Assembly: GCA_951406725.2 (NCBI GenBank) | Contig: OX597826.1 | Span: 63,054,001 to 63,118,000, forward strand | Source of the DNA: Octopus vulgaris | Taxonomy: Eukaryota | DNA: 64,000 bases | Reading direction: 5' to 3' | Shown: in pieces, positions 5,228-48,735 of the stretch | Numbering within the stretch: position 1 is the stretch's first letter | Layout of the letters: each line of letters starts with the position of its first letter | Program-made: the position numbers and the translations under genes | The notes under the pieces: model-generated | The model's input: only the letters and a program-made list of their open reading frames with translations | Told to the model about the DNA's origin: nothing | The model's database searches: none

Positions 5228-5655
5228 GGTTTCAAATTTTCGCACAAGGCCAGAAATTTTGGAGAAGAGTTAAGTCGAGTACATCGACCCCACACCGTAC
5301 TCTGCTGGTACTTATTTCATAGACCGCGAAAGGATGAAAGGCAAAGTCACCCTCGGCGAAATTTGAAACCAGAACGTAAAGACGGACGAAAAGCCTTTTA
5401 ATCTATACAATGTTGTATAATCTATACAATGTTGTATAATCTATACAATGTTGTATAATCTATACAATGTTGTATAATCTATACAACTCTGCTGGTACTT
5501 ATTTCATAGACCGCGAAAGGATGAAAGGCAAAGTCACCCTCGGCGAAATTTGAAACCAGAACGTAAAGACGGACGAAAAGCCTTTTAATCTATACAATGT
5601 TGTATAATCTATACAATGTTGTATAATCTATACAATGTTGTATAATCTGTACAAT
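5228..5655 (-). mobile_element. SINE family A fragment with 187-bp tandem duplication and 19-bp minisatellite
   Basis: ACTCTGCTGGTAC... at 5299 and 5486; repeated unit AATCTATACAATGTTGTAT. Confidence 0.8.
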
Positions 5656-6219
5656 ATTGTTAATAACATTTCTAATAAGAAATTTAGCAAAATAAACGAA
5701 CATATTTGCATGGAGATATCGAAATTAATGCATATAAAACCGATGTCCTACTTGGCCAAAATCTATGTATGCTTGTTGTTTTCTTTTCGTTGTTTTTTCT
5801 TCTTCCTCTTCGTCAGCTTCATATCCTTCATCTCCTTTTTCTCGTTAATTTTTTTTCTCCTTTTGATTCCTCTACTCTTCCTCCTCCTCCTCCTCCTCCT
5901 CTTCCTTCTTTTTCTTCTTATTCTTGCTGCTACACCCGAAGACGGCCTTATTCGAGCAGAATGACTTGTCATCAGAAATTTTCTAAAATATGTCCACCTT
6001 ACCTTCGTCTATAAATCGCAAAATGACCTTCAGTTCATCTAAATAATTTGACGGTTAAATGCAATCATCTTGAAAACAAACAATAATTACGAATCCTAAT
6101 AATTGTCTTTGTAAAAGCCTGGACATAATTTCATTTGATATCTGTTTTCGTTTTATGATATCGTGATTATTGAATACAGACAATAAATTGAAGTAATTCA
6201 GTTAATAGCAACAAGAACC

Positions 6220-7389: not shown

Positions 7390-8935
7390 AACAGGAGAAA
7401 AAGAAAACGCTTTTCTCTATACACAAGGAGGCGACAAAAAACAAAGCAGAAACAAAATCCATCGATAGCAGAAGCTCAAAATCTCTGATCTAATTGCTGA
7501 AACAGAATACCTGACTACAAACAAGTTTAAAGGCAAAACAATGTAAACAATCCTTAACAACCTGTACAATGAGACAGTTGACCACATCATCTCTGGTTGT
7601 CCAGTCCTTGCCAAATCGGAATATATATATATATAGACAAGACCGAGTAAGTAGTCATATCCACTGGATAACGTGCCACCGCTACAACATAAAAACTGAC
7701 AATAAATGGTATAAACATGTGCCAAACAAGGTACATGACAAAAACCAGACCAAAATCATCTGGGACATGCCTGTTCAAGCTGACAAAGAAATAAAAACCA
7801 GTCGCCCAGGCATAATAATCAAGGAATACTCTTTTACTCTCTCTTTTACTTGTTTCAGTCATTTGACTGCGGCCATGCTGGAGCACCGTCTTTAGTCGAG
7901 CAAATCGACCCCGGGACTTATTCTTTGTAAGCCCAGTACTTATTCTATCGGTCTCTTTTGCCGAACCGCCAAGTGACGGGGACGTAAACACACCAGCATC
8001 GGTTGTCAAGCAATGCTATGGGGACAAACACACACAAACACACACACATGCACATACATATATATATATACATATATACGACAGGCTTCTTTCAGTTTCC
8101 GTCTACCAAATCCACTCACAAGGCATTGGTCGGCCCGGGGCTATAGCAGAAGACACTTGCCCAAGATGCCACGCATGTGGTTGGTTAGCAAGCTACTTAC
8201 CACACAGCCACTCCTGCGATTGATAAAAAAAAGGACACCTGCTCACGGATAGATATTTCAGTCCCTTCTGACCAAAATATTGTCCAAAAAGAAGTGAAGG
8301 AATTGTCAATGTACTAAGACCTCGAATTTGAAGTATTCAAGATATGGGGCATAAAGGTGAAAACAATACCAGTAATAATTGGAGCACGAGGAATGAAAAA
8401 AAATTAATATTAACAAAATCTAGAAGCTTTACCTGGACCCTAAAAACTACACACTATCCAAAAAATAGCCCTGTTGCGAACAGCCCACATCCTACGCAAT
8501 ATATTATCAATTCAACAATACAACCCAAACAAAACATAAGACACACTCTATATAGTAAATATCCAATATGATAAACAATCATAGCAGGTCGAATACGCAA
8601 CGCTGTACACACACGACATACAATACAAACACTAATACTACAAAAAACTACACCAGACCCTATAACAAAAGAAACTGACGCAATATAATACCGTGAAGAC
8701 CTTGCATTTTCCCAACAACAAAAAAGAACACACAATGCATCACACACACACACAGAGTAACAACCGTTCAAGAATTTGGACCTGGAATTTCCATTTCCAG
8801 CGACTTCGAGGGCCACCGCCCAGTGGTGTCGGGCGTCTACGAAGTTTTTTTCTGGGGTCTCCCGCCTGTAACCCCTAGACCATCATCTAAACACCCTTAC
8901 CCATCTTGCTGCTTGACAACAACAACAACAACACA
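7390..8935 (+). mobile_element. 3' fragment of R4/Dong-type LINE (zinc knuckle, RLE, 3' UTR, (CAA)n end), split by SINE B
   Basis: ETVDHIISGCPVLAKSEYIYRQDRV..HIHW, IIWDMPVQADKEIKTSRPGIII, DISVPSDQNI..KE, TIPVIIGARG, TAHILR. Confidence 0.8.
7827..8218 (-). mobile_element. SINE family B
   Basis: Reverse complement of the 3863-4288 family; interrupts the LINE RLE domain. Confidence 0.9.
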
Positions 8936-9029
8936 GTAACATAGAGGTGTAGCAAATGATGCAGTAGAAACTTACTTGAAACTATCAAATGTTGAAAAAC
9001 CATAATAATAGTTGCAAAATTTGCGATAA

Positions 9030-9215
9030 GACCAGCAATTTTGACGAGAGAGGGGTTGTCTGGTACTTATTTTATTGACCGTGAAAGGATGAATGACAAA
9101 TTCAGCGTCAGTGGCATTTGAACTCAGGACACAATACAGCCGAACAAAAGCAACTGCAAAGTCTCGAGTTTGCATTTTACGTAATGCGTTAGCGGTTCTG
9201 ATAACTCGCCACTTT
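9030..9215 (-). mobile_element. Degenerate SINE family A
   Basis: CTGGTACTTATTTTATTGACCGTGAAAGGATGAA...ATTTGAACTCAG. Confidence 0.7.
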
Positions 9216-9285
9216 CTAATTTTTTGTGTTATTCAATATTTGTTTCTATGTATGTATCTATCTATCTATCTATTTATCTATCTGA

Positions 9286-9322
<37 letters not shown>

Positions 9323-9527
9323 CTATCTATTTATCTTCCTGTCGATGCTGGTCGCTTCAGTAATGCAAAAACACACGTGCTTTTCTCGTACTTTCTTTTC
9401 CTCATCTCCAGACTTTTTCTTAAATGTTCTTTGAGCGTCAACCGAATGCATTGACTGTGTAGATTATTTTGAATTTTGTTGTTTTCCTGTCTTTTGTCGT
9501 TACGTCATTTAACGCAACGTCATATGA

Positions 9528-12500
9528 CCCTCTTTGATCTCTGTCGGCACCCTCTTTGATCACTTTCGGCACCCTCTCTGATCTCTGTCGGCACTCCTCT
9601 TTGATCTCTGTCGGCACTCCTCTTTGATCTCTGTTGGCACACTCTTTGATCTCTTTCGGCACCGTCTTTGATCTCTGTCGGCACCGTCTTTTATCTCTGT
9701 CGGCACTCTCTTTGATCTCTTTCGGCACCCTCTTTGATCTCTGTCGGCACCTTCTTTGATCTTTGTCGGCACCCTCTTTGATCTCTAACGGCACCGTCTT
9801 GGATCTCTGGAATGTCAGCAATGTCAGGAATGTCTGGAATGTCTTTGATCTCCGTCGACACCCTCTTTGATCTATGTCGGCACTCCCTTTGATCTCTGTC
9901 AGCACCCCTTTGATCTCTGTCGGCACTCTCTTTGATCTCTGTCGGCACTCTCTTTGATCTCTGTCGGCACTCTCTTTGATCTCTGTCGGCACTCCCTTTG
10001 ATCTCTGTCGGCACACCTTTGATCTCTATCGGCACCCTCTTTGATCTCTGTCGGCACTCCCTTTGATCTCTGTTGGCACCCATTTAATACCTGTCGGCAT
10101 CCTCTTTGATCTCTTTCGGCACCCTCTTTGATCTCTGTCGGCACTCTCTTTGATCTCTGTCGGCACTCTCTTTGATCTCTGTCGGCACCCTCTTTGATCT
10201 CTGTCGGCACTCCTCTTTGATCTCTGTCGGCACACTCTTTGATCTCTGTCGGCACCCTCTTTGATCTCTGTCGGCACTCCCTTTGATCTCTGTTGGCACC
10301 CATTTAATCCCTGTCGGCACGTTCTTTGATCTCTGTCGGCATCCTCTTTGATCTCTATCGGCACAATCTTTGATCTCTGTCGAAACTCTCTTTGATCTAT
10401 GTCGGCATCCTCTTTGAACTCTTTCGGCACCCACTTTGATCTCTGTCGGCACCTTCTTTGATCTTTGTCGACACCCTCTTTGATCTCTTTCGGCACCGTA
10501 TTTGATCTCTGGAATGACAGGAATGTCTGGAATGTCAGGAATGTCTGTAATGTCTGGAGTGTCAGGAATGTCTGTAATGTCAGGAATGTCTGGAATGTCT
10601 GGAATGTCTGGAATGTCGGGAATGTCGGGAATATCTGGAATGTCAGGAATGTCCGGAATGTCTGGAATGCCAGGAATGTCTGGAATGTCAGGGATGTCTG
10701 GAATGTCTAGAATGTCAGGAATGTCTGGAATGTCAGGAATGTCTGGAATGTCAGGAATGTCTGGAATGTCAGGAATGTCTGGAATGTCAGGAATGTCTGG
10801 AATGTCTGGAATGTCTGGAATGTCTGGAATGTCAGAAATATCTGGAATGTCAGGAATGTCCGGAATGTCTGGAATGTCAGGAATGTCTGGAATGTCAGGA
10901 ATGTAGGAATGTCAGGGATGTCTGGGATGTCTAGAATGTCAGGAATGTCAACACTCTCTTTGATCTCTGTCGGCACTCACTTTGATCTCTGTCATCACCC
11001 CTTTGATCTCTGTCGGCACCCTCTTTGATCTCTGTCGGCATCCTCAATGATCTCTGTCGGCACTCTCTTTGATCTCTGTCGGCATTCTCTTTGATTTTGT
11101 CGGCACTCCCTTTGATCTCTGTCGACACCCTCTTTGATCTCTGTCGACACTCCCTTTGATCTCTGTCGGCACCCCTTTGATCCCTGTCGGCACGTTCTTT
11201 GATCTCTGTCGGCATCCTCTTTGATCTCTGTCGGCACACTTTTTGATCTCTGTCGGCATCCTCTTTGATCTCTTTCGGCACCCACTTTGATCCCTATCGG
11301 CCCCCTCTTTGATCTCTGTCGGCACCCTCTTTGATCTCTTTCGGCACCGTCTTTGATCTCTGGAATGACAGGAATGTCTGGAATGTCAGGAATGTCTGTA
11401 ATATCTGGAATGTCAGGAATGTCTGGAACGTCAGGAATGTCTGGAATGTCTGGAATGTCAGGCATGTCTGGAATGTCTGGATCGTCGGGAATATCTGGAA
11501 TGTCTGGAATGCCAGGAATGTCTAGAATGTCAGAAATGTCTGGAATGTCTGGAATGTCGGAATGTCTGGAATATCTGGAATGTCAGGAATGTCTGGAATG
11601 TCTGGAATGTTTGGATCGTCGAGAATATCTGGAATGTCAGGAATGTCCGGAATGTCCGGAATGCCAGGAATGTCTGGAATGTCAGGGGTGTCTGGAATGT
11701 CTAGAATGTAAGGAATGTCAGGAATGTAAGGAATGTAAGGGAATGTCAGGAATGTCTGGAATGTCAGGAATCTCTGTAATGTCTGGAATGTCAGGAATGT
11801 CTGGAATGTCAGGAATGTCTGGAATGTCAAGAATGTCTGGAATGTCTGGAATGTCAGGAATGTCTGGAATGTCAGGAATGTCTGGAATGTCTGGAATGTC
11901 TGGAATGTCAGGAATGTCTGGAATGTCTGGGATGTCTAGAATGTCAGGAATGTCAACACTCTCTTTGATCTCTGTCGGCACTCACTTTGATCTCTGTCAT
12001 CACCCCTTTGATCTCTGTCGGCACCCTCTTTGATCTCTGTCGGCATCCTCTTTGATCTCTGTCGGCACTATCTTTGATCTCTGTCGGCACTCTCTTTGAT
12101 CTATGTCGGCATCCTCTTTGATCTATGTCGGCACTCTCTTTGATCTCTGTCGGCACACTTTTTGATCTCTGTCGGCATCCTCTTTGATCTCTTTCGGCAC
12201 CCACTTTGATCCCTATCGGCCCCCTCTTTGATTTTTGTCGACACCCTCTTTGATCTCTTTCGGCACCGTCTTTGATCTCTGGAATGACAGGAATGTCTGG
12301 AATGTCAGGAATGTCTGTAATATCTGGAATGTCAGGAATGTCTGGAACGTCAGGAATGTCTGGAATGTCTGGAATGTCAGGCATGTCTGGAATGTCTTGA
12401 TCGTCGGGAATATCTGGAATGTCTGGAATGCCAGGAATGTCTAGAATGTCAGGAATGTCAGGAATGTCTGGAATGTCTGGAATGTCTGGAATGTCTGGAA

Positions 12501-15500
12501 TATCTGGAATGTCAGGAATGTCTGGAATGTCTGGAATGTCTGGAATGTTTGGATCGTCGAGAATATCTGGAATGTCAGGAATGTCCGGAATGTCCGGAAT
12601 GCCAGGAATGTCTGGAATGTCAGGGGTGTCCAGGAATGTCTGGAATGTCAGGAATGTCTGGAATGTCAAGAATGTCTGGAATGTCAGGAATGTAGGAATG
12701 TCAGGGATGTCTGGAATGTCTAGAATGTCAGGAATGTCAACACCATCTTTGATCTCTATCGGCACTCCCTTTGATCTCTGTCAGCACCCCTTTGATCTCT
12801 GCCGGCACCCTCTTTGATCTCTGTCGGCATCCTCTTTGATCTCTGTCGGCCCCATCTTTGATCTCTGTCGGCACTCAGTTTGATTTCTGACGGCAGCCTC
12901 TTTGATCTCTGTCGGCACTCCCTTTGATTTCTGTCGGCACACCTTTGATCTCTGTCGGCACCCTCTTTGATCTCTGTCGACACTCCCTTTGATCTCTGTC
13001 GGCACCCCTTTGATCCCTGTCGGCACGTTCTTTGATATCTGTCGGCATCCTCTTTGATCTCTGTCGGCACAATCTTTGATCTCTGTCGGCACTCTCTTTG
13101 ATCTATGTCGGCATCCTCTTTGATCTATGTCGGCACTCTCTTTGATCTCTTTCGGCACCGTCTTTGATCTCTGGAATGACAGGAATGTCTGGAATGTCAG
13201 GAATGTCTGTAATATATGGAATGTCAGGAATGTCTGGAATGTCAGGAATGTCTGGAATGTCTGGAATGTCAGGCATGTCTGGAATGTCTGGATCGTCGGG
13301 AATGTCTGGGATGTCAGGAATGTCCGGAATGTCTGGAATGCCAGGAATGTCTGGAATGTCAGGTGTGTCTGGAATGTCTATAATGTCAGGAATGTCTGGA
13401 ATGTCTGGAATGTCAGGAATGTCAGGAATGTCTGGAATGTCAGGAATGTCTGGAATGTCTGGAATGTCAGGAATGTCTGCAATGTCTGGAATGTCAGGAA
13501 TGTCTGGAATGTCAGAAATATCTGGAATGTCAAGAATGTCTGGAATGTCTGGAATATCAGGAATGTCTGGAATGTCAGGAATGTCTGGAATGTCAGGGAT
13601 GTCTGGAATTTCTAGAATGTCAGGAATGTCAACACCCTCTTTGATCTCTGTCGGCACTCTCTTTGATCTCTGTCGGCATCCTCTTTGATCTCTTTCGGCA
13701 CCGTCTTTGATCTCTGGAATATCAACAATGTGAGGAATGTCTTGAATGTCTGCAATGTCAGGAATGTTTGGAATGTCTGGAATGTCAGGAATGTTTGGAA
13801 TGTCTGGAAACTCAGGAGTATCTGGAATGTCAGGAATGTCTGGAATGTTAGGACTGTCAGGAATATCTGGAATGTCAGGAATGTCTGGAATGTCTGGAAT
13901 GTCAGGAATGTCTGGAATTTCTAGAATGTCAGGAATGTCAACACCCTCTTTGATCTCTGTCGGCACTCTCTTTGATCTCCAGGAATGTCTGGAATGTCTG
14001 GAATGTCAGGCATCTCTGTCGGCATCCTCTTTGTCTGGAATGTCAGGCATCTCTGTCGGCATCCTCTTTGATCTCTTTGGGCACCGTCTTTGATCTCTGG
14101 AACGTCAACAATGTGAGGAATGTCTGTATTGTCTGGAATGTCAGGAATGTCAGGAATGTCTGGAATGTCAGGAATGTTTGGAATGTCTGGAAATTCAGGA
14201 GTGTCTGGAATGTCAGGAATGTCTGGAATGTTAGGACTGTCAGGAATATCTGGAATGTCAGGAATGTCTGGAATGTCAGGAATGTCTGGAATGTCAGGAA
14301 TGTCTGGAATTTCTAGAATGTCAGGAATGTCAACACCCTCTTTGATCTCTGTCGGCACTCTCTTTGATCTCCAGGAATGTCTGGAATGTCTGGAATGTCA
14401 GGAATATCTGGAATGCCAGGAATGTCCGGAATGTCTGGAATGTCAGGAATGTCTGGAATGTCAGGGATGTCTGGAATGTCTATAATCTCAGGAATTTCAA
14501 CACCGTGTTTGATCTCTGTCGGCATCCTCTTTGATCTCTGTCGGCACTCTCTTTGATCTCTGTCGGCACTCTCTTTGATATCTGTCGGCATCCTCTTTGA
14601 TCTCTGCCGGTACCGTCTTTGATCTATGTCGGCACCTTCTTTAATCTTTGTCGACATCTTCTTTGATCTCTTTCGGCACTGTCTTTGGTCCCTGGGATGC
14701 CAGGAATGTCTGGAATGTCTGGAATGTCAGGAATGCCTGGAATGTCTGGAATGTCAGGAATGTCTAGAATGTCAGTAATGTCAGGAATGTCAGAGATCAA
14801 AGATAGTGACGATAGAGATCAACGAGTGTGCCGTCAAAGATCAAAGATGGTGCCGACAGAGATCAAAGAGTGTGACGACAAAGATCAAAGTCGGTGCCGA
14901 CAGAGATCAAAGAGTGTGCCGACAAAGATAAAAGACGGTCCCGACAAACCGGATCAAACCGGTTCAAATGTCAGGAATGTCAGAAACATCAGGAATGTCT
15001 GGAATGTCAGGAATGTCTGGAATATCTGGAATTTCAGGAATGTCTGGAATGTCAGGAATGTCAGGAATCCCCGGAATGCCAGAAACGTCAGCAATATCAG
15101 GAATATCTGGAATGTCTGGAATGTCAGGAATGTCAGGAATATCTGGAATGTCTGGAATATCAGGAATGTTTGGAGTGTCAGGAATGTCTGGAATGTCAGG
15201 AATGTCTGGAATGTCAGGAATATCTAGAAATTCAGGAATGTTTGGAATGTCAGGAATATCTGGAATGTCAGGAATGTCAGGAATGTCTGGAATGTCAGGA
15301 ATGTCTGGAATGTCAAGAATTCTGGAATGTCTGGAATGTCAGGAATGTCTGGAATGTCGTTAATGTCTGGATTGTCTGGAATGTCATGAATATCTGGAAT
15401 ATCAGGAATGTCTGGAATGTCTGGAATGTCAGGGATGTCAAGAATGCCTGCAATGTCTGGAATGACCCTCTGTCGGCCCCCTCTTTGATCTATGTCGGCC

Positions 15501-16293
15501 CCCTCTTTGATCTCTTTCGACACCCTCTTTGATCTCTGTCGGTACCCTCTTTGCTCTCTTTCGGGACCCTCTTTGATCTCTGTCGGCACCATTTTTGATC
15601 TCTTTCGGCACCCTCTTTGATCTCTGTCGGTACGCTCTTTGATCTCTGTCAGAACCCTTTTTGATCTCTTTCGGAGCCCTCTTCGATCTCTGTCGTCATC
15701 CTCTTTGATATATGTCGGCACCCTCTTTGATATCTGTCGACAACGTCTTTGATCTATATCGGCACCCTCTTTGATCTCTGTCGGCACGCTCTTTGATCTT
15801 TTTCGGCACCCTATTTCATCTCATTCAGGGCCTTTTTTTATCTCTGTCGGCACCCTCTTTGATCTCTCTCGGCACCCTCTTTGATCTCTTTCGGCACTCT
15901 CTTTTCTCTCTGTCGGCACCCTTGTTGATCTCTTTCGGCACCCTCTTTGATCTCTTTCGTCACCGTCTTTCATCTCTGTCGGCACTCTCTTTGATCTCAT
16001 TCGTGGCCTTCTTTGATCTCTGTCGGCACCTTCTTTGATCTCTGTCGGCACCATCTTTGATCTCTTTCGGCACCCTCTTTGATCTCTGTTGACACGCTCT
16101 TTGATTTTTGTCGGCATGCTCTTTGATCTCTTTTGGCACCCACTTTGATATCTTTCGGGACTCCTCTTTGATATATGTCGGCACCCTCTTTGATCTCTTT
16201 CGTCACCCTCTTTGATCTCTTTCGGCACCCTCTTTGATCTCTGTTGACACCCTCTTTGATCTCTGTCGTCACGCTCTTTGATCTCTTTTTCGG
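9528..16293. repeat. Compound satellite: alternating blocks of a ~22-bp unit (CTCTTTGATCTCTGTCGGCACN) and a 9-bp unit (GGAATGTCT/GGAATGTCA) with higher-order organisation
   Basis: Read directly. Roughly 150-160 22-mers and about 350 9-mers, estimated from block length divided by period. Main 9-mer blocks ~10510-10950, 11361-11955, 12280-12739, 13172-13631, 13715-13940, 14098-14332, 14372-14498, 14692-14790, 14968-15465. Confidence 0.98.
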
Positions 16294-16672
16294 GGTGTTA
16301 GTCAATTACATCGACCGCGGTACTCAATTGGTATTCATTTCATTGACCCCGAAAAATAAATGGCAAAGTCGACTTTGACGGAATTTGAACTCAGAATGTA
16401 AGAGCAGACAAAAAACTGCTAGGCATTTTGCCCGAAATGCTAACTATTCTGCCAGCGCACCGCCATTCTTGCTCCCTTAACATTACAACCCAAACAAGAC
16501 ACTGCCTGAAATTTTGTGGAAAGGCGTTAGTCGGTTACATCAACCCCAGTACTTGACTAATACCTAATTTACAGACCCGATAAGGATGAATCGTAAAGTC
16601 GACCTCGGTTGAATTTGAACCCAGAACGCCGCTAAGCATTTGTCCGACTCGTTAAAGATTCTACCAGCTTAC
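16290..16672 (-). mobile_element. Two degenerate SINE family A copies abutting the satellite
   Basis: GCAAAGTCGACTTTGACGGAATTTGAACTCAGAA and AAAGTCGACCTCGGTTGAATTTGAACCCAGAAC. Confidence 0.8.
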
Positions 16673-16886
16673 TTCGATGACGGTGGTGGTGGGGCGGAGG
16701 CAGTGGTGCTGCTGCTGCTCACGGCGATAATGTTGATTATGTTGATCATCATCATCATCAACATCATCATCATCATCATCATTTAATGACCATTTATTTG
16801 TCCCAAGAGCTTGGGTTAAAAGGAATATTACAAAACAGGGTGAACAGAGAGGGGGGTAAATGAATGAGGTGAAAAAACAAAGTATA

Positions 16887-17274
16887 TCTTTATATATAAA
16901 AGTCAAGTTGTGTGTCTGTCTCCTACGATTTAGATTCCTAACTACTCCCACATTTTGCGGTGCAGTTTAACCAAAATCTTATAGTCGTGATTCATATCGA
17001 GCCCTTCTGGGTATTAGCGCGCGTCTACGATGAGTCTACGATTTTTAAAAAAATTTACCATCATTTTTCCCATTTTTAATGCATTTTTTTGCTATTATAT
17101 ACGGGAAGTAACTCTCTAAAAATGTCTACGATGAGTCAACGATTTTTAAAAAAATTTACCATCATTTTTTTCCATTTTTAATGCATTTTTTGCTATTTTT
17201 TGGCTATAACTCTCTAAAAATGCTTTATAGTTATTTCCCTTACAAACCCGAGCAACGCCGGGCGATGCCGCTAG
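16887..17274 (+). mobile_element. Non-autonomous Helitron
   Basis: 5' TCTTTATATATAAA after an A; subterminal hairpin CCCG-AGCAACGC-CGGG (17247-17262); 3' CTAG followed by T; internal ~100-bp tandem duplication. Confidence 0.8.
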
Positions 17275-17727
17275 TAGTATATAAATGCCTTATCATAAGG
17301 AAAATAGTTCTCTTAATATAAGTGACGAGCCTCAAGAACAATTAGGGAGCTACACTGAACCAAACTCTCCATGACAACTAAGGGTAAGTGCTCTTTTCTA
17401 ATGGTTCACCATCGATCTACAGACGTATGCTTAAAATAGTTCCACCCACACAATATTCAACACAGTCACCACTGAAGGAGGAAGTAGGTGAGGAGAATAC
17501 AAAGAAGGAGGATAAGTTAGGAAGAGAAGGGGAAGCATTTTAAGGCTAGGGGACAAATCAATCACGTTAATTTCCAGAAAAATAAATGATACTTTATTTT
17601 CTCGACACCCGAAGAGACCAACGGAAAAAAAAAGCTCGTGTTGGTGAGATTTGAACTCACAACATATAGAGCCTTTTTTTTCCGACGCGCTAACGAGTCT
17701 GCCAGCAGACTGCTTTATCTTTTAATA

Positions 17728-17943
17728 TTGGGTTGATGCATAATTATTGCGGCTTTTTTTTTTTTTCAACAAAATCGATAATAATATTTAACAAAAACAA
17801 GCAAATGGGAAGAAATATTTGAAGTAGATTGTGAACATGCTCTGGAATAACCATTTAAAGATGTTTTTGTTACATGTCGTTATTGTTTTTGTTGAATAAA
17901 ATTTGTTTTAAAAAAAAGCCGCAATAATTATGCACCAACCCAA
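17728..17943. mobile_element. Mariner-type MITE
   Basis: TIRs TTGGGTTGATGCATAATTATTGCGGCTTTTTTT / AAAAAAAGCCGCAATAATTATGCACCAACCCAA, TA on both sides; the TIR resembles the Hsmar1/MADE1 type. Confidence 0.9.
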
Positions 17944-18174
17944 TATATCATGATATGTCTATTGATTTTATTGAATTTCTCTGTAGCATATTACTTATAT
18001 TCAGTTCATATTTCGTGTTGTGTACTTTGTAGATCCAGGTGATACAAAGCTAGAGGGTCATAGTTGGAAAGTCTTTCATGATAGTATTTTCTTCGATCAG
18101 GAAGGATTATGATCGTTTGGCAAAGATACTCTTTCCGTAAGTTTCCAATCGGAAGGTCTAAATTATTACAGAGA

Positions 18175-21251: not shown

Positions 21252-22447
21252 CAGACATGACCGAAGTAAATAGACACCTTCATAGTCATTAAGATTTATT
21301 CAAATCTGAAATTATACTTTCAAATTATGTATTAATTGTTATAATGTGAATATCTAATATTTAGTAGACATGCCCTATGCATTTTTCAATGCAAGGTTCC
21401 TATTGGGTATATTACTGATCAGATGACGAATATGCTCTTGCGGAAATTCTTGCCAACTTTCATGCAGTACTCTCAAAAGTTTCATGAAGTGTCCTGTTCA
21501 TTTATGTCCCAGAGATGTTCAATAGGGTTCATATCTGGTGACTGACTTGACCTTGGAAGCTTTTTAATACCATTCTCATCCAACAAATCTTGGCTCATTT
21601 TAGCCAAGGGACAAGGAGCCCTATCATCCATAAATAGCCTTCTTTAATCATTTCACCACTGGAGAAGAATTGAAGGAGTCATTTCTGCAATATGGACATA
21701 TATTTATCTGATTTTATGTTTCCCTCACACTCCACCAGCTCTGTTCAACCATTGCTCCAAATTGCTTCCTAGAACATCACAGAATAGCTGCCGTGTGTCA
21801 TTGTTGGCTGTAATCTTTTCATATCAAATTCTTGATCACAGAATCTCCGGACCCACACTCGACCACTGTCAGGAAATGAGGCAAATCTGGACTTATCAGA
21901 GAATATGACAATGCCCCAAATTCTAGTGGCTTCTCCAGTGTTTTCTCAGCTTGATGTTGGCGGGTCGAAAAAGCGGCTTCCTTCTTGTTGCTCTGCTTTA
22001 TTAACTAAGTTTGTGGAGATACTAGGATTTTTCTGGGACTGACATCAGCTTCTGCTATGTCAGAGGCCTTGTAACGAGGATTATCCGCCACACTTCTCTT
22101 AGTAAATAGGTGTCCTGTCAGATGGTCCTGGTTGATCTGGACGAGGTGATGTGGACTCCTTCCCCTCTCTGGTGAATCACACAATCACTCTATTAACTGT
22201 AGAAAACGGTATCCCAAGATTTTCCGCCATTTTACGCTGACTGTGTCCACCTTCACAATGACCCACCATACGGCGTCTTTGAAATTCAGACAACTCCAAA
22301 GCTTCTTTTGTACATAGCATGATTAAAGTTACATGTAGAACATGAAAAATAAAATTGACAATTGATAAAGAATATATAAAACTTTGCAAGTTACAATAAA
22401 CATAAAACGATGTTTTATGGGATGCCAATTTACTTCTGTCATGTTTG
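21252..22447 (-). mobile_element. Near full-length decayed Tc1-like transposon
   Basis: ~27-bp imperfect TIRs (CAGACATGACCGAAGTAAATAGACACC / GATGCCAATTTACTTCTGTCATGTTTG). Minus peptides [61 protein letters not shown] with stops and frameshifts. Confidence 0.9.
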
Positions 22448-22828
22448 TGTATATGACAGAAGTAATGGTGGATGGATGGACATAACTAATTATATGGAGT
22501 GGCCCAATACACCCACGAAAGATTTTGTCATGTGGAGATGAATCAAACTATTATTAAAAATATATTTAGCTCTTATCCAATATATTGAGGAATATTTGCT
22601 TCCGTTTCATTTACTATATTTATACATGTACATATATATAAAATTCTATTAACAAATATTGCTGCTTATGGAACTTAAATAATGCGGCTGAAAAATCTAA
22701 GCATTTATGTCATTCCTGTAGCAACGTCAGCACCTTCAAAATTCTAAATGTCATGTTTATGTCTGGGGGTGTTTTTCTCCAGTTTGCAAATCCAGACTAT
22801 TTATGTGTGTGTGTGTATTTACACATTG

Positions 22829-26221: not shown

Positions 26222-27035
26222 GACGAAATAACTTCTAAAATACAAATTTTTGACAAAAACGTTAAGAATAAACCCTGTTCTATGTGACACATTCTACTAG
26301 ACTTGGAAGTTTGAAAGTGTTTAGTTAAAAAAAATTAATTAAATAATCTGTACATCTAATTGAATAGATCTGAAATGGATGAAAGGCAAAGTCGACCTCG
26401 GCAGAATTTGAACTCAGAACGTAAAGAGAGACGAAATACTGCTTCTAAAGTACAAAATTTTGGCAAAAACGTTACGAGTAAACCCTGTTCTTTGTGACAC
26501 ATTCTACCAGTATCGAAAGTTTGAAAGTATTTAGTTTTAAAAAAATAATTAAATAATCTGTACGTTTAATTGAATAGATCCAAAATGGATAAAAGACAAA
26601 GTCGACCTCGGCGGAATTTGAACTCAGAACATAAAGACAGACGAAATACTCCTAAAATACAAAATTTTATCAAAAACGTTAAGAGTAAACCCTGTCTTAC
26701 GTGACACATTCTACCAATATCGGAAGTTTGAAAGTGTTTAGTTAAAAAATAATTAATTAAATAATCTGTACGTCAAACTCGACCTCGGCGAAATTTGACC
26801 GCAAACGTAAAGACGGACGAAATACTCAACTGTGTTTCGTCTGTCTTTACGTTTGCGGAAATTTTGTATTTTAGAAGGAGTATTTCGTCTGTCTTTACGT
26901 TCTGAGTTCAAATTCCGCCGAGGTCGACTTTGCCTTTTATCCATTTAGGATCTATTCAATTAAACGTACACATTATTTAATTAATTTTTTTTAACTAAAT
27001 ACTTTCAAACTAACGTTTCTGCCAGCTCACCGACT
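26222..27035. repeat. ~209-bp unit (SINE-A fragment plus unique AT-rich DNA), about three copies in tandem and one inverted copy
   Basis: GACGAAATA at 26222, 26430, 26640, 26816; inverted copy ~26860-27010; central hairpin 26799-26858. Confidence 0.9.
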
Positions 27036-29693: not shown

Positions 29694-30473
29694 CATTGTC
29701 ATTTACTTTTAATCTGCATGTTTGATGCAATCGATTGCCGGGGCACACCCAGCGCCCTAGGGCAAGTGAAGGTTAAGAGTTGTTGAAATATAGCTGAAAG
29801 CTTGGGGAAGGGAAGTAGAGAAATATCTCCATGTAATACAAACACAAACATTTACATTGATAGAGTTTTTCTAAGGATGTGGGCAGTACTTGTTAGCACA
29901 ATCTTTTGGATTTCCTTGAGACATGGTTCTCCAGGGATATTGTCTAGGTGTTTCTGGCATCCCTTTTTTATCATACCTAGGGCACCTACAATAACAGGAA
30001 CAGTTTTTGTTTTAAGATTCCACATCTTTTGTATTTCGATTTCCAGGGCAAGTGAAGGTTAAGAGTTGTTGAAATATAGCTGAAAGCTTGGGGAGGGGAA
30101 GTAGAAAAATATCTCCATGTAATACAAACACAAACATTTACATTGATAGGGTTTTTCTAAGGATGTGGGCAGTACTTGTTAGCACAATCTTTTGGATTTC
30201 CTTGAGACATGGTTCTCCAGGGATATTGTCTAGGTGTTTCTGACATCCCTTTTTTATCATACCTAGGGCACCTACAATAACAGGAACAGTTTTTGTTTTA
30301 AGATTCCACATCTTTTGTATTTCGATTTCCAGGTCCTTATATTTACTAAGTTTGTCAAATTCCTTTTCAGATACATTTTTATCAGTGTGGACGCTTACCT
30401 CTATTAGTCTGCAGGTATTTTCTTCCCTGTCTTTAACAATTATGTCTGGTCGATTAGCCTTGATCGTTCTGTT
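29690..30473 (-). mobile_element. 3' end of R4/Dong-type LINE (RLE domain plus 3' UTR) within (AAT)n, with 286-bp tandem duplication
   Basis: NRPDIIVKD..CRLIEVSVHTDKNVSEKEFDKLSKYKDLEIEIQKMW..TVPVIVGALG...STAHILRKTL; duplicated units 29759-30044 and 30045-30330. Confidence 0.92.
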
Positions 30474-31224: not shown

Positions 31225-34200
31225 TTATTATTATTATTATTATTATTATTATGGAGTGAGGGAGCGGTGCATGCCATCAAAGTGACACTGGGGTAAAATA
31301 TACGAAGCCCAGTATACCCATCATGACTACCCATCTGATAAGGGTACACCAGGCACATGCATCACAACCATATGTGCGCGACATGGTGATCTCATATCAA
31401 GATAAACAGCACATGACCTTGCAGTTAGAATTTTCTTCTGGTCGAGCAACCCATCCCACTCAAAAGGTCCCTGAATAAGAGTTGTTTAAGGATGTTGAAC
31501 GAAACACCCATGCTTCCAGAGCTGAATTATTCAAACTCCAAAGAATCCCTCTCAACACATGGCTATGATGCTCCCCCACTACTTCTGCTCGTGATCAAAG
31601 ATGCACATATCGTCAGCCACTAAGGGACATGCTCAACTGGTTTTCCAGGGTGACTCTTTATCACCACTCCTCTTTTGTCTAGCCTTTATGCCGCTCTCAA
31701 AATTGTACGATGATGTACAATATGGCTATAAAATGTTAGATGAAAATATAAATCATCTAATTTACATGGATGATTTAAAGCACTTTGCAAAAAATGACCA
31801 ACAACTACAGGGTTTACTAGCGATTGTTAAACAATTCAGCGATGAAATCAGGATGCAATCTGGCCTCGATAAATGTGCAAAAGCTACCTTTATTAAAGGA
31901 AAAATGACAGAAGCATCCAAAGTTAAGCTTGACCAGAAGGATGTCATAAAGGAATTAGAACTATCGGAGAGCTACAAAAACATAGGGTTATTTGAAAGTG
32001 ATGGAATGAATCATTTAGCGATGAGGGAAAGGATCAGAAGAGTTAGTTATCGCAGGGTAAAGGCAATACTCAAGACAGAGTTGTGTGCAAGAAACAGGAT
32101 CGAAGCTATCAATACCTTAGCCATACCGGTCGTGACTTACAGTTTCAATATCATTAACTGGTCAATTACTGAAATATGTAATCTTCAGAGAAAAATACGA
32201 AAATTGTTGACAATGCTTAGAATGCACCACCCTAAGGCGGATATAGAACGAATCTACTTGCCACTAAAAGAGGCTGGCCGTGGGCTTTTCCAGCTGGAAT
32301 TATCAATGAAGATTGCCACTATTGGTCTAAACACCTCCCAGAAAAACTCTGATGATAGGATGTTAAAATATCTGAAAGCATGGAAAAAATAAAGCATCAT
32401 ACTCAGTAGCAAAACAGGCAAAGGAATATCTAAGTGAATTCCAAATACTACAATGAAAACCCGTGCTAAAACTGCTGCATTAGATATTCTGAATGATAAA
32501 TGGCAAGAAAAGCCTCTCAATGGCAAATACCCAAATATAGATAATAGTACCGATGTTGAGAAAGCCATTACCCATCAATAGTTAGCGTCTTCTGGCTCAA
32601 AATCAGAAACAGAAGTGTTTACCATAGCAGCCCAAGATCAATGCCTACCTACAAGAAACTGCCAGATCAACATATTAAAAAACGGCTGTAGCCCAACATG
32701 CCGTGTATTTACGCAACAAAATGAAACCAACGACCATGTTGTCTCCATGTGCAGTGAATATCTCAACAGGCATGATAGAGCAGCACAATATATTCAGTGG
32801 GTAATTTGCAAAAGTCTGGGCATGCCCCATGATAAAAACTGATGGGAACACACACTAACTCCAGTGCTTGAAAATGCCACATGAAATTCTTACATCTCCA
32901 GTACTGAGAGATTCATTGACACTGTTCAAAGTCAGTGTAGTTCTCCGTGATCTCATACATAAAGACAAGAGGTTTCTCAGAGTAGGTGCTATTTTATACA
33001 TTTCTAGACATTTCTTAATCCAGCTATGCGGTAGACTATCAAAAGCTTTTTCATAGTCTATCCAGGCTATCGACGAGCTTTTGTGTTGTATGTGACAATC
33101 TTCCAAAATCATCTAATATAAATAAGATAAGTAGCTTATTTTTACAAACATAGAATCCACGTTTACATCTTTTTTGCTCATTAGGGAATATGCCACTTTC
33201 TATTAAAAAACTATAGGTGTATTCAGTCAAGACATATGTTAGTATTTTATACATTGTTGTTAAGCAGGTTATGGGTCTATAATTGTTTAGTTCCTTTGTT
33301 GTCCATTTTTTGGAAGTAGGAATGTAACACCATTAACTAGCCAAGAAGGAGTCATACTAGGTTGTTGCAAAACATTGTTGTAAAGTTTTGTTAGCAGTTC
33401 ATGGCTCTCTGGGAAGGCATTAAACCAGAAGTTAAGTTTCATCCTTTCCTGGAGACTTCCATTTGCTTGACATCCTGAGAGCAGATCTTACATCCTCTAC
33501 CTTGATACCCACCCACGTTTGCTATTCTAAGGAGTCTAAATCTGTAGATATTCTATCAACCCAAGGGGCCTTTTCATTGTGTGTTTTTTCTTCTGCCCAA
33601 ATTTTATTCCAAAATTCCTGCACTTCTTTTAATGGGACATACTTTACTGTTAGTGGTATTTTCCTTATCTTCCTGTAAAAATTTTGGGGATTACGTTTGA
33701 ACATGTTGTTGACCTTGAAGAATCTAATGCGCTTTTCATACCTTGCTATGCGGGCAGCTTTAGCACAGACCTTTCACCTGATAGTTTCTATGGTGGTATC
33801 GATGTCAATTGTGGTTTTCATATATTTTTATTGATAGTCTTGTCAAACTTAAGGTTTTTTAAACATTCAATGTCAGACCTAAGCAGCTGAATTTGGTGTT
33901 GAATACGCTCTTGCCAAGTAGGCTTTTTGTGGGAATGTTGTCGTTTTCTAATCTTTTCACCACATAGGATCGTTGAGATTTTCGCGGATGCATAGTACAG
34001 GTGGTTGAGATCTGTAATATCAACATTATTAGCTGAAATTATGTCCTCAAGTGCAAGGCTTTGGTTAGAATTGCACATTTTTGGAAGAGTGTCGCATTCA
34101 TTCATACTGGTTTCTTTAATCTTCAGCCATTCAATCATGATTTGATTTCTTTTAGATCAAGTAGTTATGTTGGGTTAATTTCTGTGCGACTTCCTTCATC

Positions 34201-38364: not shown

Positions 38365-38595
38365 AAACACTTTTGTCACAAACACTTTGAGCCAATTTTG
38401 CATTAGTCTAATCCTATTTTTTGTCCAAATCACTTTGACCTAATTGTACCTTGATCCAATGATATTTTCTTCCAAAACACTTTGGTCTAATCATACATCG
38501 GTCCGATATTTACTTCCAAAATACTTTGGCTTAATTATACATCGGTTTGATGATATTTTCTTTCAAAACACTTTGGTTTAATCACATATTGTTGG
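38365..38595. repeat. Degenerate ~42-50-bp minisatellite
   Basis: Recurring AAACACTTTGGTCTAATCATACATCGGT..GATATTTTCTTCC variants. Confidence 0.7.
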
Positions 38596-47357: not shown

Positions 47358-48735
47358 AATAATATTATTATTGGGGTTAGTAGCCCGCGCTCTTAATCAC
47401 TATGCCATATGCCCGTGGGCAATTATGGAATGAATTTTTAGGTCATATAAATCTAATATTTTCCTTTCCTCCCTTAATACCGGTTCCCATATGCTATTCA
47501 TATCTGCACTCGGTCTGCTTAGGAGGTTGTTGTGTCCTAGCATATGTGCTGCTTTTTTAGTTTTCGTATGGATGGTTGAAATTGAAGTTAAGGTATCGCC
47601 CAGTGAAGGTAGGTTTGCGTTATACGGATGTTCCGAATCCATACTCGGTGCGTGTTATTAATACGTCCAGGAATGCTAGCTGATTGTCTTTCCCTTTTCC
47701 ATTGTGAACTGTATGGATGATGGATGGCTTTATTGAGCTCACATGATCTAACAGCACTTGGACATCTTCCTGGTGGGGCCAGAGTATAAAGGTGTCATCA
47801 ACATATCGTAGCCACAGAGTCGGTTTTAGTGGTGTTGATCCTAAAACCAAATTCTCAAAGTATTCCATGTATATATTGGCTATTATCGGTAATAGTGAGG
47901 AACCCATAGCTAAACCCTCTTTTTGTCGATATATATCAGTGTCCATACTGAAATAGGTAATTTCTACACAGAAGCTCAACATTTCCATCAATTTTTTTAT
48001 TGGTATACGAGTGCGTTCTTTTAGATGGGTATCTGTCACTAGTTTTCCTTGTATCACCGACAGTGCTTCACCAATTGGGACTTTGGTGAACAGGCTTATC
48101 ACATCTAGACTCACCATCTGGTTTGATTCAATGGGGGTATCCTTGATCAATTCTGTGAAGTGGGTGGAATTCTTCACGTACGATGTTGACTTTCTTGCTA
48201 ATGGACTGATTATATCCACAAGGAAGCGGCTCAGTGGATGACATGCTGAACCTCTACAGCTCACTACAGGTCATAATGGAATACCATCCTTGTGAATTTT
48301 AGGGAGACCGTACACGTGTAGTAGTTTGCTGTAATGTTGAGTCGGTTGTCTGTATTTCATTAGTGTAAAGTGATCTTTGTTCTTGATCAAGATCTGACAA
48401 CTTCCTCTCTGTTTTCAGAATTGGGTCTTTCTTTACTTTGCTGTAGCTACCATCACTTATAATACTTGCCAATTTTTCCGAGTAGTCAGACTTGTTCATC
48501 ACCACTGTAGCATTTCCTTGTCCACTGGAAGTATTATGATGAAATTGTCACTCTGTTGTCTTTTGATAGCGAACTTTTCTTCCTTGATGATGTTTGGTTT
48601 AGGAAGTTTCGTTTTTCCAGTTCTTGTCTCACCTTCCACCTTAGTTCATCTCCCTGAGCTTTTGGTATCTTTACGGCTATCTCTCAATAGGGGCTAATAT
48701 GTCCAAGTATGGAATTTGCTTGATAGTTGTCACTA
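47120..48735 (-). mobile_element. Penelope-like element: decayed RT, most of endonuclease deleted, 3' pLTR with hammerhead
   Basis: ILPVDK(G)NATVVMNKSDY, PKIHKDGIPL*PVV, MVSLDVISLFTKVP, YRQKEGLAMGS, ANIYM, WLRYVDDTFILW, FLDVLI. Confidence 0.92.
47170..47215 (-). ncRNA. Minimal type-I hammerhead ribozyme, intact core
   Basis: GACAC-CUGAUGA-A-GGC...GCC-GAAA-CGUU-GUGUU; palindromic AACGUU; lies 3' of a PLE RT on the same strand. Confidence 0.85.

Follow-up and report, generated by a model that had tools for sequence, protein, structure and literature searches.

The locus described here raises the question of whether a minisatellite whose units resemble the binding sites of two signalling effectors owes that resemblance to binding. 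The locus lies in a stretch of 64,000 nucleotides of Octopus vulgaris (assembly GCA_951406725.2, contig OX597826.1, positions 63,054,001 to 63,118,000 of the forward strand; the whole stretch is hereafter the window), in which a composite array alternates between a 22-mer (module A) resembling a TCF/LEF (Wnt) site and a 9-mer (module B) resembling a TEAD/Scalloped (Hippo) site. A first interpretation of the letters, here called the sequence-only reading, had placed the array at 9528-16293, in agreement with the span obtained here (9528..16294, + strand), and had proposed that it could serve as a Wnt/YAP integrator. Comparison with related loci across the genome established mobility of such arrays together with their flanks, mixing of modules, higher-order duplication, and selective retention of the TCF core. 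Given how intact this core has stayed, the repeats are likely bound by TCF. The explanation that is tentatively favoured is that the array belongs to a dispersed family of short tandem-repeat modules copied among loci and into one another, and that the TCF core of the 22-mer was kept, probably because binding by TCF leads to preferential copying or retention of the bound units.

The resemblance itself was examined against published consensus sequences. The HMG consensus is SCTTTGWWSWW and that of the helper is GCCGCCR, in which the first four bases weigh most; in the KK0 geometry an HMG site is followed by a reversed helper without a spacer, an arrangement that increases TCF affinity and drives tissue-specific reporters (PMC4154663). 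Non-vertebrate TCFs carry a C-clamp (PMC4267635). Module A consists of a linker, an 11-bp HMG-type site (core CTTTGATCT), and a reversed helper-like 7-mer, and is an exact zero-spacer KK0 pair with 9 of 11 HMG matches and 6 of 7 helper matches; in this it resembles the synthetic HMG-Helper and TOPFLASH-type reporters described in PMC4154663, and the adjacent helper of the sequence-only reading was borne out. The TEAD core is GGAATG, commonly arranged as a double motif spaced 3 bp (PMC11526998), and module B, TC(A/T)GGAATG, repeats this core with a 9-bp period. Both units therefore agree with the published consensus to which they had been assigned.

The array contains 147 forward and 7 inverted copies of module A (approximately 154) and 346 copies of module B. 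Counts of CTTTGAT were 131+5 within the array and 12 in the remaining 57 kb of the window; those of GGAATG were 255 and 25, and those of the double GGAATG with 3-bp spacing 173 and 0. The earlier estimate of about 150 TCF plus helper-like sites is close to the number of 22-mers, but CTTTGATC was intact in only 108 of 138 parsed 22-mers, and CTTTGATC and CGGC were both present in 82 of 138. Likewise, the estimate of about 350 TEAD sites fits the count of 9-mers and has to be lowered to approximately 250, because GGAATG was intact in 249 of the 346 parsed copies. The A/T position was indeed the main polymorphism of the 9-mer (1434 T and 1246 A among 2813 units across loci).

The argument that a double match to signalling motifs makes chance less likely was examined by shuffling. 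CTTTGWWS was found in 0.75% of shuffled 22-mers and GGAATG in 0.53% of shuffled 9-mers, and a helper fell into the gap in 4% of shuffles. Any match to a panel of 19 motifs was obtained in 11-17% of shuffled 22-mers and 6.4% of shuffled 9-mers, or approximately 1% jointly, so that the two-unit argument is by itself modest and, given the large scan, not decisive. The two units were described as unrelated, and modules A and B were no more alike than chance (P 0.22-0.70). Derivation of the 9-mer from the tail of the 22-mer was rejected, the likeness not exceeding chance. A TEA-domain gene was found in the genome. A search for a TCF gene via the N-terminal beta-catenin-binding family gave no match, and the control likewise gave no signal, so that this search was uninformative.

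The evidence that carries the favoured explanation comes from variation among units. For module A, 3481 units were compared from the 32 loci with at least 20 units, out of 56 annotated stretches that had been chosen via different modules, with one N-bearing block dropped. A variant that reached 10% of a locus was counted as spread, and variant types were divided into core-breaking and tolerated according to the published HMG consensus. Among the 22 possible 9-bp segments of the 22-mer, the most conserved was CTTTGATCT, and it ranked top again in a held-out set of 1478 units from 9 further loci delimited without a motif anchor. Singleton events per type were similar for core-breaking (6.3) and tolerated (6.0) changes across the 32 loci, while spread events numbered 6 vs 86, and 5 of 23 core-breaking types had spread vs 18 of 26 tolerated types (Fisher p 0.0014). 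In the held-out loci, spread events numbered 0 vs 13. Position tests matched for base gave p 0.0008 and 0.0027 for the TCF core, indels in the 22-mer were almost confined to the linker, and the borders of the conserved block agree with the published HMG core. The HMG/TCF site of the 22-mer is under constraint: broken cores arise as often as tolerated changes and seldom spread. Constraint on the helper was weak to intermediate, with position tests at p 0.016 and 0.095, yet 17 of the 32 loci showed spread of G21A.

Related loci, for which the sequence-only reading had suggested a search, proved to be abundant. An exact module A 33-mer had 945 matches in the 2.8-Gb genome, and at least 67 arrays in at least 55 clusters were located on 17 chromosome-scale contigs (C1-C15, C17, and C18), the window being on C13. 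The arrays measure 0.2-12 kb and the chains that they form reach tens of kb; megabase heterochromatic arrays of the kind known from human Satellite 3 (HSat3) were not found. The 55 clusters listed lie closer together than random (within 5 Mb, 22 observed and 11.9 expected; p 0.007). Subtelomeric placement was rejected: of the 55 clusters, 11 were less than 10 Mb from a contig end, where 9.5 were expected. Contigs C16 and C19-C30 (approximately 22% of the genome, including unplaced pieces) contained no family array in two complete listings, where an effect of the search is possible. At least 11 family arrays were observed in the 10 Mb around the window (C13:55.6-65.5 Mb), a region without a homeobox match. 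A fold-back was observed at locus L095 (C13:61.757-61.766 Mb), where the array and its flank form an inverted duplication.

The composition of these arrays varies. The 56 annotated stretches comprised 12 with modules A and B, 11 with A, B, and the 10-mer module C, 4 with A and C, 1 with B and C, and 28 with a single module; regular A-B-C super-repeats were present at several loci. Among loci chosen by the 22-mer, the 9-mer stood alongside it in 5 of 21 (4 of 12 and 1 of 9). A special pairing of TCF and TEAD sites, or a dedicated Wnt/YAP integrator, is therefore unsupported, and the pair in the window is one of many module combinations.

The joints and flanks of the arrays bear on how the family was formed. 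The most frequent A-to-B joint (22 cases) lies at a TCTG common to both units, and B-to-A joints lie at a common TGTC; from these bases microhomology repair is presumed. Some arrays are nested within other satellites and microsatellites. Across 104 array ends the flanks were mostly unrelated, with no common terminal structure or flank. The 5' flank that travels with the window array (9241..9497, + strand; 94% identity to the array flank at locus L031) had 4 strong copies elsewhere, all 4 of which abut family arrays, and 15 weak matches, none of which do. Since the strong copies all adjoin arrays and the weak ones do not, arrays appear to have been copied along with bits of flank.

Modules A and B belong to a larger repertoire. 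Approximately 15 unit types return in mixed chains, in which family arrays adjoin other minisatellites in an order that changes among loci, and 132 kb of chain extensions yielded the same module set and one new unit, unlinked to the chains and without a panel match. A panel motif was present in 13 of 20 chain unit clusters vs 3.3 expected, in 10 of 17 vs 2.9 once rows containing A or B were removed, and in 9 of 15 vs approximately 2.6 after removal of the remaining duplicates by hand. In a control of far and arbitrary DNA the panel matched 6 of 17 rows (2.7 expected); six of these 17 rows, however, were again library modules, and the other 11 rows (separated by hand) held 2 matches vs approximately 1.7; this control set is small because arbitrary DNA gave just 2 qualifying minisatellites in 160 kb. 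The Grainyhead consensus is AACCGGTT (PMC5829564), and module C, which forms long arrays at other loci, contains this string in its window remnant and varies more in its CCGG centre than in TTTGA. Module C resembles module A at 8 of 10 positions (P 0.08-0.10). In a 56-mer the MEF2-like positions were more conserved (p 0.007), and a 59-mer carries inverted TEAD cores, one of which, GGAATGTT, is its most conserved segment. We take the 52-mer to be STAT-, NF-kB-, and ETS-like, two further units to be MEF2-like, a 21-mer to be octamer-like, and several units to be CRE-like.

Several observations on these modules stand by themselves. The 52-mer (L061, L074, L077, L083, and L135) contains up to three STAT-like sites; at the first, variation judged by eye falls on three free middle bases, while the overall motif test was negative. 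A very abundant 13-mer (L027, L057, L083, and L128-L132) has a conserved CTATTT core, common to the MEF2-like modules, and no panel match. A 54-mer tandem with an AP-1/ARE-like site lies approximately 1 kb from a family array (L075:6337-6557). A chain of many library modules extends over tens of kb at C2:215.45-215.50 Mb (L027, L083, and L128-L130), approximately 100-150 kb from the contig end, and is a possible reservoir of modules. A far-reaching proposal holds that this coleoid lineage has a mobile combinatorial minisatellite kit, each module a homotypic site cluster for a different signalling or tissue factor, i.e. TCF, TEAD, Grainyhead, CREB/ATF, STAT/NF-kB, MEF2, or POU, whose reshuffling into kb composite enhancers genome-wide would create new signal-integrating regions in single steps; we regard it as unlikely.

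Under the favoured explanation of binding-coupled copying, TCF would bind the core of the 22-mer, and factor-bound sites would be prone to breaks and duplication, so that units with good sites out-copy others. Factor-bound arrays may come together and template each other, and may insert into one another via microhomology-mediated repair. On this view the arrays would serve as binding platforms that act as sinks and are probably repressed by default; copies landing near a responsive gene would gain enhancer activity as a by-product. Precedents exist for both steps: factor-bound sites in the human germ line show a duplication bias linked to binding (PMC8559717), and in mixed fly satellites one repeat inserts into another by microhomology (10.1101/846238).

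A number of results weigh against this explanation. The conserved block is contiguous, so that the location test can reach at best 1 in 22, and loci have common ancestry, so that spread events are not fully independent. Within the detection anchor alone the position test was non-significant (p 0.10), consensus-tolerated alleles inside the core were not favoured, and T16, T18, and C19 outside the core were conserved equally. The sequence-only reading had set its hypothesis against an even distribution of substitutions; unevenness was found at the TCF core, was weak at the helper, and was unclear for TEAD, where spread events per type averaged 1.2 in the core and 1.75 in the flank, just 3 non-core positions being available for comparison, and where the core change G9A had spread in 11 of 33 loci. 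Motif positions were not more conserved than others in the 52-, 34-, 21-, and 13-mer modules. Furthermore, the 19-motif panel was picked after the units had been seen, and 7 of the 20 chain unit clusters had no panel match.

Many of these points would be expected of neutral minisatellites, in which a look-elsewhere effect would account for the likeness to motifs, and the conserved block would stem from a few old variants that happened to arise in the linker or from another binder, e.g. a lineage-specific zinc-finger protein. The chance of any motif for the pair is approximately 1% with many windows scanned, the panel is post hoc, four modules are negative for constraint with TEAD unclear, the anchor-only test is not significant, and a derivation of module C from A would lessen the independence of the modules. 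We nonetheless judge this rather improbable, as the core constraint recurs in the held-out loci and after base matching, the borders of the block coincide with the published HMG core, and minisatellites outside the library show no motif excess. Still less probable, and in our estimation very doubtful, is a transposon or large DNA virus remnant whose enhancer repeats carried and seeded the module set. A closed module set in fixed local orders and flanks shared among subsets of loci are what such a carrier would leave; against it stand the lack of common termini or flank across most of the 104 array ends, the mere 4 strong copies of the window 5' flank, a 22-mer dimer without a match in viral contigs, and the absence of a carrier open reading frame adjoining the array.

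The core constraint does not separate binding-coupled copying from host selection, because selection by the host predicts identical constraint; the arrays would in that case be enhancers or silencers of nearby genes, with the module mix setting the inputs (here Wnt and Hippo). The KK0 geometry with its 4% chance, the regular A-B-C super-repeats at several loci, and two pure TCF-site arrays at distances of 21 kb and 44 kb from a homeobox gene fit this possibility, and human tandem repeats are able to be strong enhancers (PMC13373173). Most motif-cluster repeats described in that source had no effect on neighbouring genes, however, and in the octopus the 149 open reading frames of the window gave no host exon, no overall closeness to homeobox genes (p 0.07 and p 0.15) or protocadherin clusters was seen, A and B co-occurred in just 5 of the 21 loci picked by A, and arrays sit in other satellites or microsatellites and in chains of tens of kb. 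Host-selected enhancers as the general explanation are accordingly considered doubtful, and binding-coupled copying and host-selected enhancers are not mutually exclusive.

The surroundings of the pure TCF-site arrays are described here for their own interest. A 331-unit pure array (L118:785-8066; C15:47.57-47.58 Mb) lies between two paired-class homeobox genes (L119 and L120), 44 kb from one; the best solved match of that one was aristaless, and the two genes are presumably Rx-like and homeobrain-like. Another pure array (L117:3538-5322; C14:64.14 Mb) lies 21 kb from a homeobox gene (L116) which, its solved matches being merely generic, we take to be Vax-like. A link of the family to homeobox genes was not significant (2 observed and 0.44 expected within 0.1 Mb, p 0.07; p 0.15 for the mean distance). 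The genome contains expanded clusters of single-exon protocadherins, which together with the putative short interspersed nuclear element described below suggest a coleoid cephalopod; to these clusters the family likewise showed no closeness. A run of approximately ten homeobox matches at C17:70.0-78.5 Mb is likely a Hox-type cluster, and a family array lies 0.74 Mb past it.

Within the window, the array comprises 12 forward 22-mer stretches, 12 9-mer stretches, and 1 inverted 22-mer block; the inverted block, remnants of modules C and D, and the super-units add to what had been noticed before. It is preceded by a TGACGT-rich remnant of module D (approximately 9499..9527, + strand), with ACGTCA at 9502 and 9517 and TTAACG at 9509. 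Module D, presumably CRE/ATF-like, forms longer runs at loci L059, L060, L067, L071, L073, L078, and L081. Module A blocks occupy 9528..10510 (+), broken by a brief stretch of 9-mers at 9800-9843, and are followed by a module B block (10511..10949, +). Three A+B super-units (10952-11954, 11957-12738, and 12741-13630, all +) are 91-97.5% alike and 89-95% alike to 9844-10949, and constitute a higher-order duplication over 10952..13630; for the array as a whole, super-units are 0.8-1.1 kb long with a likeness of 89-97.5%. Short alternation of A and B with internal duplications extends over 13635..14791 (+), followed by seven inverted units of module A (14792..14938, - strand), the module C remnant (14945..14964, -; AACCGGTT at 14957), the last module B block (14965..15466, +), and the last module A block (15479..16294, +). 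A protein-coding repeat was ruled out, the longest stop-to-stop frame being 300 aa with unit variants of 21, 22, and 23 bp and many frames on both strands. A scan of 8000-18000 against Rfam returned 0 matches.

A very high-copy short interspersed repeat has one copy upstream of the array (9045..9131, strand not assigned), and a related copy starts directly 3' of it at approximately 16295; we take this repeat to be a short interspersed nuclear element. Neighbouring genes had been proposed as a point to check, and the scan of the 149 open reading frames of the window yielded solely reverse-transcriptase and transposase pieces. Broken reverse-transcriptase fragments and a weak match to a transposase helix-turn-helix were observed at 31595-33112, 47623-48270, and 22180-22485. 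Unrelated local tandem duplications are present at 5299-5664, 26222-26774, 29759-30333, and 38371-38584 (187, 210, 286, and approximately 47 bp).

Sequencing runs extended the comparison beyond the assembly. Of the sampled words, 40, 33, and 22% were present in runs labelled as three other organisms, which also contained thousands of contigs bearing module A. At the flank, runs X18 and X20 show 1 difference in 170 letters, and the two are closely related; in run X19 the 22-mer was abundant and much of the unique flank lacked cover, a gap that proves nothing on distance. Four RNA runs of the window's species hold almost none of the words, and runs of other labels guessed to be RNA hold 4-16%; transcription is by these neither shown nor excluded.

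Known systems share parts of this picture. Human HSat3, a TEAD/NFAT binding platform, is likewise a tandem repeat with the TEAD core GGAATG (PMC11526998); the double motif with 3-bp spacing, noted there as the common arrangement of TEAD sites, equals the period of the 9-mer, and simple motif enrichment predicted binding. A density of this type is present here, with 136 CTTTGAT and 255 GGAATG in 6.8 kb. In contrast, HSat3 is a megabase pentamer satellite, while the octopus arrays, for which binding is predicted, are small, dispersed, built of several unrelated modules, and apparently constrained in their TCF unit. The MORC3-repressed IFNB1-MRE repeats (PMC13373173) are also homotypic factor-site clusters in tandem and act as latent enhancers held shut, a role that the octopus arrays may share; they are single-locus and single-motif and lack sequence kinship, whereas the octopus arrays form one mobile mixed family. 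The Drosophila 1.688/Rsp-like euchromatic satellites (10.1101/846238) share small dispersed clusters, insertion of one satellite into another by microhomology, higher-order repeats, and local spread, and the octopus family, like such dispersed satellites, comprises numerous small clusters in which mixed units meet at microhomologies and form higher-order repeats; its units differ in being 9-60 bp, of approximately 15 types, and in matching factor sites. Finally, the germ-line bias (PMC8559717) is alike in that binding itself multiplies motif copies, as is proposed for the octopus, and unlike in that the human cases are single 5-20 bp insertions rather than kb arrays or spread.

No earlier description of factor-site minisatellites forming a mobile, mixed family was found in the literature covered: exact unit strings were absent, and no account of the family appeared under octopus, cephalopod, or TCF and satellite topics, a scope outside of which lay subscription papers, supplements, and repeat databases. 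The words "satellite", "tandem", and "TEAD" do not occur in PMC13652810. Factor-binding satellites have so far been known from single human cases, and dense natural TCF clusters had been said not to occur. Thousands of constrained TCF cores, mixed with other motif-bearing modules at dozens of loci, allow two questions to be tested directly: whether the binding of factors drives the birth and spread of tandem repeats, and whether repeats provide ready-made enhancers or titrate Wnt effectors in a lineage noted for the rewiring of its regulation. Binding-coupled copying, even if it were the whole effect, would account for the non-random makeup of minisatellite units. If bound, the arrays would be ready-made regulatory pads, and if some copies are enhancers, they would provide a route to fast regulatory novelty.

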